Sequence record: NC_054915.1
Source: Escherichia phage vB_EcoM_G8
DNA length: 64,000 nucleotides
Direction: 5' to 3' (one strand)
Both the position numbers and the translations under genes were made by a program. Positions 25,012-29,545 of the stretch are shown here, one piece after another. Each line of letters opens with the position of its first letter. Position 1 is the stretch's first letter. The notes under the pieces are model-generated. The model was not told where the DNA came from. It did not search any database and saw only the letters and a program-made list of their open reading frames with translations.

Positions 25012-25059
25012 CAGGGATTGTCAATTCGCAGAGTAAAATATTAGGAGCAATATAACAAC

Positions 25060-25090
25060 GGGGACCTTTCGGTCCCCATATTTTTATTTG
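25060..25090. terminator. bidirectional terminator between gene 54 and alt.-3
   Basis: GGGGACC-TTTC-GGTCCCC then ATATTTTTATTT. Confidence 0.7.
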
Positions 25091-25374
25091 CGGAATGAAA
25101 TGAAAGCAGAAACTGAAGCAACTAAACTGTCTTCAATATAAACTTCAATTTTTACCGGAGCTTCTGACTCAAATTTACCTGTTACTACACCCTGAAAAAT
25201 ACTTTCAGTCTGTTCTGGCTTTGAAAAATTTTCAGAAGGAAAAATTCCAAACTTTTTATCTGTTCCGAAAATTTTGATAAATTCATCATAAACTGCTTCA
25301 TTAAAAGCATTATCAGCAGGAATAACGCCTTCAACTACAAGTTCTTGACCTAAAAAGCGTAAAGAAGATTTCAT
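25084..25374 (-). CDS. alt.-3: hypothetical protein (alt.-3 position)
   Basis: 96 aa; preceded by promoter/stem-loop cassette and SD GAGGA. Confidence 0.7.
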   Translation of the reverse strand: MKSSLRFLGQELVVEGVIPADNAFNEAVYDEFIKIFGTDKKFGIFPSENFSKPEQTESIFQGVVTGKFESEAPVKIEVYIEDSLVASVSAFISFRK

Positions 25375-25381
25375 TTTGTGT

Positions 25382-25435
25382 TCCTCATGTTATGTCAGTA
25401 AGACTACTATAACACAACACGAGGGACTTGTAAAC
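25382..25435 (-). repeat. 54-bp promoter/stem-loop cassette, copy 1 (upstream of alt.-3)
   Basis: 53/54 identical to 37822..37875; minus strand GTTTAC-N18-TATAGT, arms CCTCGTGTTGT / ATAACATGAGG, SD GAGGA. Confidence 0.9.
25406..25435 (-). promoter_or_regulatory. sigma70-type early promoter (GTTTAC -35, 18-nt spacer, TATAGT -10)
   Basis: Minus strand GTTTACAAGTCCCTCGTGTTGTGTTATAGT. Confidence 0.6.
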
Positions 25436-25610
25436 TACATTTTGAACTTTTTAGTACGCGTAATAGGCATGCGTCGATTTTATACTGTTTCATTGTTTGA
25501 AGAGCAGTATCAAAAACAGCATTAATGACACCAATTGGATTTCCACCCAAGTTTTTAAGCTTAACTAATGATAGTTTCTCATTAACACCTATCATTACGA
25601 TATGCATCAT
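25407..25610 (-). CDS. alt.-2: Alt N-terminal fragment paralog (matches Alt residues ~64-120)
   Basis: 67 aa MMHIVMIGVNEKLSLVKLKNLGGNPIGVINAVFDTALQTMKQYKIDACLLRVLKS aligns with Alt MMHIVPFTLTAKGSIAKLKGLGPSPINYINSVFTVAMQTMRQYKIDACMLRILKS. Confidence 0.7.
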   Translation of the reverse strand: MMHIVMIGVNEKLSLVKLKNLGGNPIGVINAVFDTALQTMKQYKIDACLLRVLKSSKCSLQVPRVVL

Positions 25611-25792
25611 TTTATCGCCCGGCTTAACGTTTTATTCGTATCACCGCCAGAGGTGTATGTACAAAATCTAAATCCAGGAAGCACGCTTTCTTCGCCGGCT
25701 TGAATAGCAAAAATTTGTGGTATTTTATGCTTAGGATTTAAGTTAACAGCCGGCGCCGAAGCGCCGTCAAATAATTCTGTAATAAGTTCCAT
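25607..25792 (-). CDS. alt.-1: Alt N-terminal fragment paralog (matches Alt residues ~2-58)
   Basis: 61 aa MELITELFDGASAPAVNLNPKHKIPQIFAIQ…FRFCTYTSGGDTN aligns with Alt N-terminus MELITELFDEDTTLPITNLNPKKKIPQIFSV…FRLCTYTSGGDTN. Confidence 0.7.
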   Translation of the reverse strand: MELITELFDGASAPAVNLNPKHKIPQIFAIQAGEESVLPGFRFCTYTSGGDTNKTLSRAIK

Positions 25793-25795
25793 GAT

Positions 25796-27844
25796 TTATC
25801 CTTGAACGAACTTGTAAGGCATGTTTGCAATATCTATGCAAGACGCAATAATTCCAAGAGATGATTCTACTTTCTGTTTAACATTTGATGAAACAAATGA
25901 TGCAAAGTCAACTCTATCTTCTATATCACCTGTCATTGTAACCAATTCACCAGTTTCCATTAAACGGTCACCGTCATAAATTACCGATTCGGTGAGTTCT
26001 TCTGTGGTCATAACTTCAGCTTGAATAAGCTTGTTGTTAGTTCTAACTGTTCCATCGTTGTAAGATGCATCGGTTATTTTATTAACTTTGACCATTAATC
26101 CACGTGGCAAAATGACTTCCATTTCATTTGAAGGCGCTAAACTTCCACCGGGTAAAACAACATTGACCTTATCAGCCCCAGTAATAACCCATCCAATTCC
26201 AACTAAATTATCACTAGAATTTACAAGTCCTTCATCAGTTTTATCAATAGAAACACTTAAACGCTTTTCGTCTGGTAAAACACCCACAGATGAATCAGTC
26301 ATCCAAGTACCAAAAATATTTGGATATAATGATGTTGACACAAAGTTTCTAAAATAAAAAACTCGATTTTTTACCATTGCTTCATATATTGAAGGTAACA
26401 TTCGTTGTGAACGATACAAAGTAATACCTTTTGGTAATCGTTCACCATTTTTAAAGGCTGAATCTAAATTATCAATGGCTTGTTCTATTTCAGGTGCTGT
26501 TAAAATACTTGTACGCTCATCTGGATTATATAATCCCAAAAGAGCATTATTCATGTCTACATATCCTGAACCTACATATTCACGAATTCCGCGTTTTTGC
26601 GCTGGTGTGTATTTAGATGAATCTTTATTTTCGACTATAGGATGTAATGACCATCCAGCGGTAAGAGCATATCCACGTAATTCTCTTCGAATAATCTTTG
26701 TTTTTATTGCATTCCAAGAATTTTGTACTAACTCATTTGCAGCATCTTGGTTTAAATGCGAATGTCTGTTAATATTTCTTTCAAACCAAGCACCTTTATA
26801 TTTTTCTAAAGTATCATCAACTATAGAAGCAATAGTTTCTAAAGTTTTTATTGAAGTAATAGATTCTTTTCGTAATCTTTCTAAAGCTTTATTTTTTATT
26901 TCTGCATTAATAATGGATTCTTTATCTTCAGGAATTATAGAAGCTTCTCTGAATGCCATTCCAGCTGTAACACTACTAAGAGCATTCTCTAATGCAAATC
27001 CTGAAGTAGAAATAACAGTTAATTCATTAGCGTCAGAAATTAAAGGAGCGTCCGCTGGTTTATTTAATTCTGCCGCTGAAGCCTCAAATTTTTGAAACAT
27101 CGGTGTTTCAAATCTAGAAGATTCCAATGACTGACTTTGTGCAATTGCTCTACGGGAAATTTTAACTTTAACGATTACAGCTTGGTCAGAACGTTTATCA
27201 TTTTCTTGTGCAATAGATGCTGCAATTGCCTCATTTTTAGTTACTTGAGCTCCAGTATCTTTATTGATATAAACATCACCGACCTTCGATTCAACTTTAG
27301 TAAAGAGCTCGGTACTAATTTCCGGAACCCCTGGAATGTCTTCTAGTGATACATTTTTGCGATGTATAAGAATATATGCATACTTTTTATCATAATCCCA
27401 GAGTTCCTTAAGAAGGACGTATCTGCCACCTGAACGACTACGGATAAGTCTATCAGCAATAACTTGAATTTGTCGAGCTTGACCGGCGGTTTTAGACTTA
27501 AGAATACGAAGCATACAAGCATCAATTTTATACTGACGCATTGTTTGCATTGCAACAGTAAAAACCGAATTGATATAATTAATTGGGCTTGGACCAAGAC
27601 CTTTCAATTTAGCAATTGAACCTTTAGCGGTTAATGTAAAAGGAACAATATGCATCATTTTATCGCCCATCTTTAAATCACGATTAGTATCACCTCCAGA
27701 TGTATAGGTACATAAACGAAAGCCTGGTTGTTCAATTGCGTCATCAACATGAACTGAAAAAATTTGCGGTATTTTCTTCTTTGGATTTAAGTTTGTAATC
27801 GGAAGAGTAGTATCTTCGTCAAATAATTCTGTAATTAGTTCCAT
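25796..27844 (-). CDS. alt: ADP-ribosyltransferase Alt (capsid-packaged)
   Basis: Track ORF is 683 aa; second Met gives 682 aa starting MELITELFDE; late promoter TATAAATA upstream. Confidence 0.9.
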   Translation of the reverse strand: MELITELFDEDTTLPITNLNPKKKIPQIFSVHVDDAIEQPGFRLCTYTSGGDTNRDLKMGDKMMHIVPFTLTAKGSIAKLKGLGPSPINYINSVFTVAMQTMRQYKIDACMLRILKSKTAGQARQIQVIADRLIRSRSGGRYVLLKELWDYDKKYAYILIHRKNVSLEDIPGVPEISTELFTKVESKVGDVYINKDTGAQVTKNEAIAASIAQENDKRSDQAVIVKVKISRRAIAQSQSLESSRFETPMFQKFEASAAELNKPADAPLISDANELTVISTSGFALENALSSVTAGMAFREASIIPEDKESIINAEIKNKALERLRKESITSIKTLETIASIVDDTLEKYKGAWFERNINRHSHLNQDAANELVQNSWNAIKTKIIRRELRGYALTAGWSLHPIVENKDSSKYTPAQKRGIREYVGSGYVDMNNALLGLYNPDERTSILTAPEIEQAIDNLDSAFKNGERLPKGITLYRSQRMLPSIYEAMVKNRVFYFRNFVSTSLYPNIFGTWMTDSSVGVLPDEKRLSVSIDKTDEGLVNSSDNLVGIGWVITGADKVNVVLPGGSLAPSNEMEVILPRGLMVKVNKITDASYNDGTVRTNNKLIQAEVMTTEELTESVIYDGDRLMETGELVTMTGDIEDRVDFASFVSSNVKQKVESSLGIIASCIDIANMPYKFVQG

Positions 27845-27867
27845 CATATCCTCTCTAGTGTTTATTC

Positions 27868-27875
27868 TATTTATA
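27868..27875 (-). promoter_or_regulatory. late promoter TATAAATA (alt)
   Basis: Minus-strand TATAAATA ~20 nt upstream of alt start. Confidence 0.7.
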
Positions 27876-27880
27876 AAATT

Positions 27881-27898
27881 AAAGGCCCGAAGGCCTTT
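27881..27898 (-). terminator. hairpin at end of 62-aa ORF, before alt late promoter
   Basis: AAAGGCC-CGAA-GGCCTTT. Confidence 0.5.
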
Positions 27899-28085
27899 AG
27901 TAATCTAGTGGTAAGAGAGTACGATATATTTCAAACTTTGGTCCTTTTTCATAGGCATCAAATGTTTCTGTGAATTTATTATAAGCGTATGCATCTACAA
28001 ATTCGAGAATGACTTGTGATACAGAAGTAGAAACATCTCCACCTTCTTTTTGAGCAATGACAATTGTTTCTAAGTAAGCTTTCAT
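27897..28085 (-). CDS. hypothetical 62-aa protein translationally coupled to DNA ligase
   Basis: ATGA overlap with gene 30 stop; N-terminus MKAYLETIVIAQKE. Confidence 0.6.
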   Translation of the reverse strand: MKAYLETIVIAQKEGGDVSTSVSQVILEFVDAYAYNKFTETFDAYEKGPKFEIYRTLLPLDY

Positions 28086-29545
28086 AGACCAGTTACCTCA
28101 TGAAAATCGCCAAATACATCTTCGAACGTATTAGCTTTAGTTTTATCTTCACGTAAACGAATCGCAATCGGAAGAAATAATTTAACGTAATCAGTGCGGC
28201 CATCAGATTTTAACCAACCGTTGCATTCGCACTCTAGAATTTTTCCAATATAATAATTTTGGTTTTCCATAATGCGAGTACGGTCAAGTTCATGCGATTT
28301 TACACCGGCTTTATCTTTTAAGCCTGAACCAGCATTTACCTTAATTTTTCCACACTCTGACTCAAGAATAAATCCACCTGCTTTAGTAGGGTCTTTACGG
28401 TGAGGATAAATTCCTACAATTTTTAAATCAACATCAATTACTTCTTTAAATTTATAGATATTTTTTGAACGAGCATTTTCCCATAATCCATCGATATTTT
28501 TGAGAATAATACCTTCAAGACCTTGGTCAATATACTTTTTATAAATTACCTTAGCTTCATCTAGGTTATTTACTACCTGGTTTTCAATTAAAATTACTTT
28601 ATCATAGCCTGATGTCATTTGTTCTAGTTTAGAAAAACGTACATCATATTTCAAACGAAATGCAGGAAGACCGTATATTTCTACCAACGGGACATAATCC
28701 CAGACCTGAAACTTCATGCATTGAGCTTCTTTTTCAGAAATGGTTCCCTTTAAAGATTTATTGGCGATTCCATTAGAAGTAGTACGTGATTCAGCTACTT
28801 CGGCGAATTCTTTGGCTTTACTAATTTCAGGATAAGCATCAAAAAGAAAATCTAGGCCTTCTGGCTCCTTTTTAACTTGCTCATGGTATACCAATTCGCC
28901 ATCAATTAACACGCCTTCTGGATGAATCTGGCGGGCTTCAGCGGTCATTTTGATTAATTCTTCCTTAAGAAGATCTAATCCTAGATATTCATTACCGGCT
29001 CGTGATAAAAGACGAACATCATCTAATTCATCACCTCTGACTTCGGCAAAGCACCGAGCCCCATCAGCTTTTAACTGGGCAAAGGCTGGAAATTTGATAT
29101 TCTTATTAATGCCTTTTTCATCATAAGAACTTGCAAGCATTTGAGGTTGTTCAGGAATTAAACCTGGCCAAACTTTGTTTGCAATAGATACTGAAGCACC
29201 ACATTCAAGGTCTCGCATCATCACTCGACGCAAAACTTCAACATCATCTTTTTTACCATCGGTGATATATCCAGTTAATTCCTCAATTGCTGCATTTCCA
29301 GTCAATTTCCGAGTAGCTAATGTGAATTCAATGAAGTCAAGCATATCGGTAAGAGTCAACATTCCAAAACTCTGGGTAGCAATACCAGGTTTAGGCCATT
29401 TCTTGATATAATACTGCAACCCACGAGAATAAGTCAGACGATATACTCGTTTAAGCAATTCATTATCTTCATTCTTTTCAAGAATTGCTTGCTTCTGCTT
29501 AGTTGAACCAATAGATGCTATTTCGTTCAGAATTTTAAGAATCAT
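28082..29545 (-). CDS. 30: ATP-dependent DNA ligase gp30
   Basis: 487 aa; adenylation lysine context AQLKADGARC (KxDG). Confidence 0.93.
   Translation of the reverse strand: MILKILNEIASIGSTKQKQAILEKNEDNELLKRVYRLTYSRGLQYYIKKWPKPGIATQSFGMLTLTDMLDFIEFTLATRKLTGNAAIEELTGYITDGKKDDVEVLRRVMMRDLECGASVSIANKVWPGLIPEQPQMLASSYDEKGINKNIKFPAFAQLKADGARCFAEVRGDELDDVRLLSRAGNEYLGLDLLKEELIKMTAEARQIHPEGVLIDGELVYHEQVKKEPEGLDFLFDAYPEISKAKEFAEVAESRTTSNGIANKSLKGTISEKEAQCMKFQVWDYVPLVEIYGLPAFRLKYDVRFSKLEQMTSGYDKVILIENQVVNNLDEAKVIYKKYIDQGLEGIILKNIDGLWENARSKNIYKFKEVIDVDLKIVGIYPHRKDPTKAGGFILESECGKIKVNAGSGLKDKAGVKSHELDRTRIMENQNYYIGKILECECNGWLKSDGRTDYVKLFLPIAIRLREDKTKANTFEDVFGDFHEVTGL

Follow-up and report, generated by a model that had tools for sequence, protein, structure and literature searches.

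The ADP-ribosyltransferases of phage T4 are, in the textbook account, three in number: Alt, ModA, and ModB. Between alt and alt.-3, T4 also carries two small open reading frames (ORFs), alt.-1 (P39495, Y12C) and alt.-2 (P39494, Y12B), of 61 and 67 amino acids (aa), which overlap at the sequence ATGA. These ORFs were listed by Nolan et al. 2006 as paralogous duplications of alt, and a full-length alt duplicate was described in the same study for phage 44RR (PMC1524935). Here we report on the corresponding ORFs of Escherichia phage vB_EcoM_G8, using a window of 64,000 nucleotides (nt) from its sequence record (NC_054915.1). In this window, alt.-1 (25607..25792, minus strand, 61 aa) begins 3 nt downstream of the stop codon of the resident alt gene, and alt.-2 (25407..25610, minus strand, 67 aa) has an ATG that overlaps the alt.-1 stop codon, again as ATGA. 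We conclude, at a probability of roughly 0.88, that alt.-1 and alt.-2 together constitute the nonfunctional 5′ stub of a second Alt-type ADP-ribosyltransferase (ART) gene, which we call alt2.

The window represents a Tequatrovirus. The nearest genome to this region is that of Escherichia phage vB_EcoM_112 (99.4% identity), and T4 matches at ~97%. The T4 stub shares with the window both a frameshifting run of four A nucleotides and a deletion junction, which are described below, and the two stubs differ at 8 positions in 417 nt. The T4 and window alt.-2 proteins are identical, and the alt.-1 proteins differ at 3 of 61 residues; unlike T4, the window alt.-1 carries a private V15A change. The Alt protein of T4 (gpAlt, P12726), which is packaged and injected, shares ~63% aa identity with the stub over the first ~118 residues, including the gp21 cleavage site MELITE/L, in which the slash marks the cut (PMC5694885). 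In contrast to T4 Alt, the stub has only half of the conserved N-terminal block, and it lacks both the catalytic domain and the C-terminal propeptide.

Other relatives have been annotated in ways that bear directly on this interpretation. In phage fPS-2, gene g192c is described as [quoted passage not shown] and it occupies the same locus and has the same deletion junction as the window. However, fPS-2 keeps a run of five A nucleotides and instead has a stop codon in place of E6, which would represent an alternative path of decay from the same ancestor. The fPS-2 paper makes no mention of the pseudogene. The full-length gene is annotated as well, as a second “Alt-like RNA polymerase ADP-ribosyltransferase,” and its orthologs include G10400_00204, PP01_203, fPS-65 g194c, RB9_192 (labelled “alt.-2”), and fFiEco06 KMC06_gp217. 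A GenBank note for fFiEco06 states that residues 1-54 of the second Alt-like protein resemble T4 Alt.-1 and, in the portion drawn on here, relates residues 62-112 to a second protein of T4, presumably Alt.-2. A full-text search on the two ORF names led to Nolan et al. 2006 as the one relevant paper, a literature search for a described second alt copy yielded nothing new, and no study of alt2 targets was found. Thus, the pseudogene status of these ORFs is essentially already known from the literature and from GenBank notes. The present analysis adds the exact breakpoints and the repeat that flanks them, the lesion in the A run, the frequencies of the two states among phages, a catalogue of independent lesions, and a contrast in selection between intact genes and stubs.

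An earlier note on this DNA, made from the sequence alone, had described alt.-1 and alt.-2 as a split duplicate of the Alt N terminus, aligning with Alt residues ~2-58 and ~64-120, respectively. The alignments themselves are borne out by searches with both BLASTP and PHROG profiles. By BLASTP, alt.-1 matches the window Alt at residues 2-58 (36/57 identical, 63%; E value 2e-23) and alt.-2 matches it at residues 64-118 (34/55 identical, 62%; E value 2e-21), whereas the profile of the Alt family, phrog_802, is matched by alt.-1 at positions 2-59 (E value 2.5e-18) and by alt.-2 at positions 64-120 (E value 8.2e-20). The ORFs also match families of their own over their entire lengths, with alt.-1 matching phrog_23015 (1-61 of 61; E value 1.6e-45) and alt.-2 matching phrog_15247 (1-67 of 67; E value 8.8e-50). 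The sequence MELITELFD, which the earlier note reported to be shared between the start of alt.-1 and the Alt N terminus, is indeed present, since alt.-1 begins MELITE/LFD. At the nucleotide level, the similarity between the stub and the resident alt is unbroken (68.6% over 331 nt; E value 1e-25) and is not limited to scattered short motifs, which the earlier note had named as the outcome that would refute its proposal. No Pfam match was obtained for alt.-1 or alt.-2, including to the catalytic domain of R-S-E type ARTs (ADPrib_exo_Tox), whereas Alt and the alt2 product both match PF03496.

The two matches to Alt are separated by seven residues, NVKPGDK, whose codons survive in the alt.-2 frame directly 5′ of the alt.-2 ATG, and the third frame across the alt.-1 stop codon reads GDKMMHIV, which corresponds to MGDKMMHIV of Alt. 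Therefore, a single 1-nt frameshift separates alt.-1 from alt.-2. The joint homology to the first ~120 residues of Alt and the split by frameshift are parts of the earlier proposal that stand. The part that does not stand is the source of the sequence, which is not the neighboring alt gene.

The actual parent becomes apparent from comparison with other T-even alt loci. Several relatives match the locus in two pieces that span ~4.5 kb, and the corresponding locus of phage vB_EcoM_G10400 (hereafter G10400; locus L002) carries two full-length alt genes in tandem, followed by alt.-3. The second of these, alt2, encodes 685 aa in 2,058 nt and includes a PF03496 ART domain (E value 4.5e-20). Over the first 348 nt of G10400 alt2, the stub matches at 98.3% identity, but it shares only ~68% nucleotide identity with the first alt gene of either phage. 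Therefore, the stub is the remnant of an old, diverged paralog and not a copy of its neighbor. The PHROG scores for the alt.-1 family likewise differ, at 137.8 bits for alt2 versus 78 bits for Alt. In addition to 98.3% identity over codons 1-116, genomes with alt2 share with the window the upstream stop codon and ribosome-binding site (RBS), as well as the downstream promoter and alt.-3. Unlike these genomes, the window lacks codons 117-685 and is frameshifted, and hence cannot encode the enzyme. The earlier note was thus correct with regard to the homology of both ORFs to the Alt N terminus, but the parent is a full-length paralog that appears to have been truncated by deletion.

In all 13 intact loci examined (G10400, PP01, fPS-65, and 10 other genomes), alt lies immediately upstream of alt2, and alt.-3 follows alt2. 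The alt2 gene spans L002 2614-4671, and in two further relatives it spans L024 2963-5020 and L025 3001-5058; the window retains nothing of it outside 25435-25792. Over their whole lengths, Alt and Alt2 share 41% identity; their N-terminal ~237 residues are well conserved, and they share a conserved C-terminal YDGD-LMETGE region. A search of the PDB revealed no structure covering the Alt N-terminal region, and produced only weak matches to ARTs of the CdtA type over residues 407-601.

The precise differences between the stub and its parent were established by a global alignment of the window with the G10400 locus, which resolves into three collinear blocks on the minus strand of the window. L002 2606-2772 corresponds to window 25800-25634 and is followed by a 1-nt gap, L002 2774-2952 corresponds to window 25633-25455 and is followed by a 1,699-nt gap, and L002 4652-5022 corresponds to window 25454-25084 with no further event. 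The 371 nt of this last block, downstream of the larger gap, are 97% identical to G10400. The block derived from alt2 (25455..25792, minus strand) comprises alt2 nt 1-339, up to the junction repeat and minus one A, at 98.3% identity to the G10400 gene.

The 1,699-nt gap is flanked by exact 9-nt direct repeats of the sequence CTAAAAAGT, which are located at L002 2953-2961 and 4652-4660 (alt2 nt 340-348 and 2039-2047). The window retains a single copy at the junction (25446..25454, minus strand). We infer from this arrangement that the event was a deletion from alt2 rather than an insertion into the stub, given that a repeat-flanked gap of this kind would be the signature of deletion by slippage or illegitimate recombination. 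The missing segment includes alt2 codons 117-685, and thus the whole ART catalytic domain (PF03496). Because 1,699 is not divisible by 3, the remaining ORF continues out of frame through the old alt2 stop codon and into the promoter of alt.-3, where it ends at a TAG located within the -10 box. The last 11 nt of alt2, TCAAAATGTAG, persist at 25435..25445 (minus strand) with the former TAG stop at 25435-25437, and these are read out of frame in the stub. Accordingly, alt.-2 is composed of alt2 residues 62-116 followed by 12 novel residues, SKCSLQVPRVVL, which derive from former 3′-terminal and intergenic sequence, whereas alt.-1 is composed of alt2 residues 1-54 followed by seven out-of-frame residues (TLSRAIK). 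The junction is identical in four of four stub-bearing genomes aligned across it.

The second lesion is the 1-nt gap, which corresponds to a run of four A nucleotides in the window (25630..25633, minus strand; AATAAAACG) where intact alt2 has five (AATAAAAACG). The loss of one A from this run is what separates alt.-1 from alt.-2. We also observed a weak hairpin, ACGCGT-N7-ATGCGT (25456-25474; six pairs, one of them G-T), immediately 5′ of the junction repeat. A stub-specific F111L change (C to A) gives this hairpin one extra pair. The hairpin may be coincidental, or it may be related to the formation of the deletion.

Based on these comparisons, the following series of events can be proposed. 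The ancestral arrangement, which is still the commonest in Tequatrovirus, probably consisted of a late promoter, alt, alt2, an early promoter, alt.-3, and a terminator. In a lineage that includes T4 and the phage of the window, a 1,699-bp deletion between the CTAAAAAGT repeats would have removed alt2 from codon 117 onward and left a 128-aa ORF, and such an ORF is still present in phages FL23 and N2. Subsequent loss of one A from the five-A run would then have split this ORF into the 61-aa alt.-1 and the 67-aa alt.-2. Different lesions accumulated in other lineages. The stub is presumably still transcribed by read-through from alt, and alt.-1 has a good RBS, so some peptide may be made.

Public genomes provide estimates of how common each state is. 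When alt2 was used as a query, at least 80% of the gene was present in 402 of 498 matching phage records. In contrast, when a 140-nt probe centered on the junction was used, 89 records matched across it as expected for a T4-type stub, and the rest matched one arm only. Therefore, intact alt2 is the common state and the T4-type stub is in the minority. An attempt to use alt.-3 as an anchor in IMG/VR gave four loci only, which is too few for a census, and INPHARED records were sampled individually instead.

A sample of 12 stubs, for which records were picked at even steps down the ranking, was used to catalogue lesions. The deletion junction is the same in all 12 (matched across or aligned over the junction). 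FL23 and N2 have the unsplit 128-aa ORF with no further lesion. The A-run frameshift is the only additional lesion in the window, T4, Pu-Krd-SF5, and an IMG/VR contig (L006), whereas a GAA to TAA change at codon 6 is the only one in fPS-2. Both lesions are carried by SP21535, Lutter, and slur03. They are joined by a 1-nt deletion in alt.-2 in phage IME537, and by a 7-nt duplication in alt.-2 in phage HY03. Overall, the codon-6 stop (near window position 25777) is present in 6 of the 12 genomes, and this stop and the A-run deletion are seen in all four combinations, which implies either that co-circulating stubs have recombined or that one of the two sites has mutated more than once.

The stubs also differ from intact genes in the types of mutations they have accumulated. 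We compared the first 113 codons of 11 intact alt2 copies with those of the 12 stubs. All variants among the intact copies amount to 35 synonymous, one nonsynonymous, and no nonsense changes. Variants found only in intact copies include 17 synonymous and no nonsynonymous or nonsense changes, whereas variants found only in stubs include five synonymous, eight nonsynonymous, and one nonsense change. This difference (9 nonsynonymous or nonsense to 5 synonymous, versus 0 to 17) is significant by Fisher’s exact test (p = 1e-4). The ratio for the stubs is close to the neutral expectation, because ~78% of possible single-base changes are nonsynonymous. Thus, the N-terminal region is strongly constrained when it is part of the whole enzyme, and is unconstrained as a stub.

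These observations correspond to the features expected of a unitary pseudogene, in that an intact ortholog resides at the same locus in relatives, independent disabling lesions are present, and constraint is relaxed. They suggest that neither alt.-1 nor alt.-2 is maintained by selection. The earlier note had offered a decaying duplication as its second option, and decay is what the lesions and the relaxed constraint support.

The one evidently working element within 25407-25792 is the early promoter of alt.-3, of the sigma-70 type (25406..25435, minus strand). A scan gave 10 of 12 matches plus the TG extension, with a -35 box GTTTAC at 25430-25435, a spacer of 17-18 nt, and a TG-extended -10 box TATAGT at 25406-25411. 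This site is annotated as “predicted early promoter” in fPS-65 and as “promoter” in Lutter. In T4, alt.-3 RNA and protein are classed as early in the part of a time-resolved dataset drawn on here (PMC9697503). There, Alt.-3 is among the more abundant early proteins, with label-free quantification (LFQ) values of ~1-2e9 from a few minutes after infection.

Transcription of the stub itself is likely to depend on alt. No terminator-like site is present on the coding strand between the late promoter (27868) and position 25079, and therefore the late alt transcript should read through the stub. The alt.-1 ORF retains a Shine-Dalgarno sequence inherited from alt2, AAGGA (within 25790-25803), positioned 7 nt upstream. 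There is no evident Shine-Dalgarno sequence for alt.-2, which could be reached only by stop-start coupling at ATGA. In the time-resolved data for T4, which carries the same allele, alt.-1 and alt.-2 RNAs are classed as “middle,” and neither has a protein class (PMC9697503). The whole-cell infection proteomics from that work report an LFQ of 0 for Alt.-1 (P39495) in every listed sample column, while in the columns drawn on here Alt builds up late in infection and Alt.-3 is already abundant early (PMC9697503).

Several points weigh against classifying the stub as nonfunctional. The zero LFQ value for Alt.-1, although in line with the other evidence, is a weak negative, as a 61-aa peptide gives few tryptic peptides. 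Peptides that would be expected from Alt.-1 include IPQIFAIQAGEESVLPGFR and FCTYTSGGDTNK, and one from Alt.-2 would be NLGGNPIGVINAVFDTALQTMK. In the window, alt.-1 is an intact 61-codon ORF with an AAGGA RBS and MELITE/L, situated on the late alt transcript, and on these sequence features its translation, or even the packaging of its product, is possible. Moreover, the lesion catalogue covers 12 stub-bearing genomes from among 89 records. Finally, the stub persists and has not been wholly deleted, although this could be neutral, or could reflect the fact that its 3′ end carries the alt.-3 promoter.

The most substantial alternative is that alt.-1 produces a peptide that makes use of the Alt propeptide, as the earlier note suggested when it proposed that alt.-1 could yield a small packaged peptide. 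Alt is a prohead-core protein present at ~40 copies per head (PMC9026906), from which gp21 cuts six residues off the N terminus, at ITE-6, and 63 off the C terminus, at LTE-619 (PMC5694885). The window alt.-1 keeps MELITE/L exactly, which is a gp21 site of the (L/I)-x-E type, and its start, MELITE/LFD, is identical to the Alt N terminus that is cleaved at ITE-6 (PMC5694885). Given its inherited Shine-Dalgarno sequence and its cotranscription with late alt, with no intervening terminator, the peptide could reach the prohead core, undergo gp21 cleavage, and end up packaged or injected, or it could instead compete with Alt for packaging. In the most explicit form of this proposal, alt.-1 would be translated late from alt mRNA, and a processed peptide of ~55 residues would enter proheads, where it would modulate the copy number of Alt or be injected with the DNA. 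We consider both the general and the explicit forms to be improbable. In half of the stubs sampled, the GAA to TAA change destroys the alt.-1 ORF, and does so at the codon for the cleavage-site glutamate itself; thus, the ORF is not maintained across relatives. The stub-only changes within codons 1-53 (six nonsynonymous and one nonsense, versus three synonymous) also argue against a functional alt.-1, as does the LFQ of 0 in the listed columns of the T4 proteomics (PMC9697503). Furthermore, capsid targeting has been demonstrated only for internal proteins. The experimentally defined capsid-targeting sequence is MKTYQEFIAE of IPII and IPIII, which is “not conserved in other core proteins” (PMC9958956), the role of the Alt propeptides is explicitly left open (PMC5694885), and no capsid-targeting role for the 6-residue propeptide of Alt has ever been shown in this literature (PMC9958956, PMC5694885). 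If the peptide were nevertheless packaged, then phages with the codon-6 stop would simply have lost that function.

Three other explanations concern the origin of the split or of the stub itself. A fusion of alt.-1 and alt.-2 of ~128 aa, and hence an N-terminal-domain protein with its own function, might arise if ribosomes shifted frame in a programmed manner, or if transcription slipped, at the A run. The split does fall within a homopolymer, the ORFs overlap each other, and FL23 and N2 have an unsplit ORF of 128 aa. However, the required -1 shift at AAU-AAA-ACG lacks a slippery heptamer of the form X XXY YYZ, and the alt.-2 frame has a TAA directly before its AAC codon, so that any slippage would have to take place precisely at the AAA codon. 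The RNA downstream of the A run has no excess structure (minimum free energy -14.3 kcal/mol versus a shuffled mean of -13.2; z = -0.47). A run of four A nucleotides is far too short for transcriptional slippage. In addition, the run is not conserved, since alleles with five and with four A nucleotides both exist, and both ORFs bear further lesions elsewhere. We therefore regard this explanation as very improbable, and programmed frameshifting was rejected for lack of a slippery heptamer and of a stimulatory RNA structure. An equally slight chance attaches to a recent partial tandem duplication of ~360 nt from the 5′ end of the resident alt. Although the stub adjoins alt in the same orientation and its homology to Alt residues 2-118 is continuous, its nucleotide identity is ~68% to the resident gene versus 98% to a distinct full-length paralog. 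The 3′ end of the stub holds the final 11 nt of alt2 together with the 3′ flank of that gene, and the junction falls between 9-nt repeats that are both present in intact alt2. On these grounds of identity and of the alt2 3′ end, recent duplication was rejected. Lastly, since sequencing often miscounts homopolymers by one base, and since unsplit alleles do occur, the phage might in reality have one 128-aa ORF. This is extremely improbable, and was rejected, because the same four-A allele is found in many independent genomes. These are T4 (in two assemblies, OZ209023 and the reference coordinates of PMC9697503), Lutter, slur03, SP21535, Pu-Krd-SF5, HY03, IME537, and one IMG/VR contig. Even if the split were an artifact, the unsplit ORF would still be a truncated, out-of-frame remnant. 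Thus, we favor the conclusion that alt.-1 and alt.-2 are the decayed 5′ end of alt2.

The remainder of the locus runs as follows, and all of its genes up to gene 54 are on the minus strand. DNA ligase (28082-29545) is followed by a small ORF (27897-28085), a terminator (27880-27899), and a T4-type late promoter with the octamer TATAAATA (27868..27875), which lies upstream of alt. This octamer occurs 18 times in the window versus 9.0 expected (0 of 100 shuffles reached 18), mostly on the plus strand and in the first 19 kb. The resident alt (25796..27847) encodes a full-length Alt-type ART of 683 aa from the first ATG, with PF03496 at residues 375-615 (E value 1.3e-33) and a match to phrog_802 (E value 7e-263). 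It is 97.3% identical in nucleotide sequence to the first alt of G10400, and is a paralog of the gene that gave rise to the stub. Downstream of the stub is alt.-3 (25084..25374), which encodes a 96-aa DUF5498 protein (PF17602; E value 5.4e-64). Because it is the downstream neighbor in stub-bearing and intact-alt2 genomes alike, alt.-3 serves as a synteny anchor. The transcription unit of alt, the stub, and alt.-3 ends at a bidirectional intrinsic terminator (25058..25079), whose position is matched by annotated terminators in fPS-2 and fPS-65, and beyond which gene 54 is located on the plus strand.

The first alt gene is itself variable among relatives. In two IMG/VR contigs (L004 1786-3879 and L006 3486-5579), it is mosaic relative to the G10400 gene (L002 556-2610), which is the counterpart of window 25796-27847. 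Identity is ~95% over nt 1-807 and ~74% over nt 1228-2055, whereas nt 808-1227 are unalignable. Annotated lengths of the alt coding sequence across phages range from 2,052 to 2,226 nt. This mosaic organization suggests that catalytic-domain alleles are exchangeable. In HY03 (L012 1-172) and Pu-Krd-SF5 (L015 1-179), the coding sequences annotated upstream of the stub are 645 and 885 nt long, respectively, versus ~2,050 nt elsewhere, which raises the possibility that in these two phages the first alt gene is disrupted or split as well.

As a decaying remnant, the stub matters little in itself. For annotation pipelines, alt.-1 and alt.-2 (PHROGs 23015 and 15247) would be better flagged as pseudogene fragments than as hypothetical proteins. 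Of greater consequence is the gene that the stub represents. Approximately 80% of sequenced Tequatrovirus genomes retain the Alt-like alt2, which is under strong purifying selection (35 synonymous changes to 1 nonsynonymous in the first 113 codons). T4 is a deletion variant at the alt2 locus, and so lacks a fourth, conserved Alt-like enzyme. There is a slight chance that the loss of alt2 in the T4 lineage was adaptive rather than neutral, for example because it allowed evasion of a host system able to sense the second ART. For work on host takeover by the ARTs of T4-like phages, alt2 is worth examining in phages other than T4.

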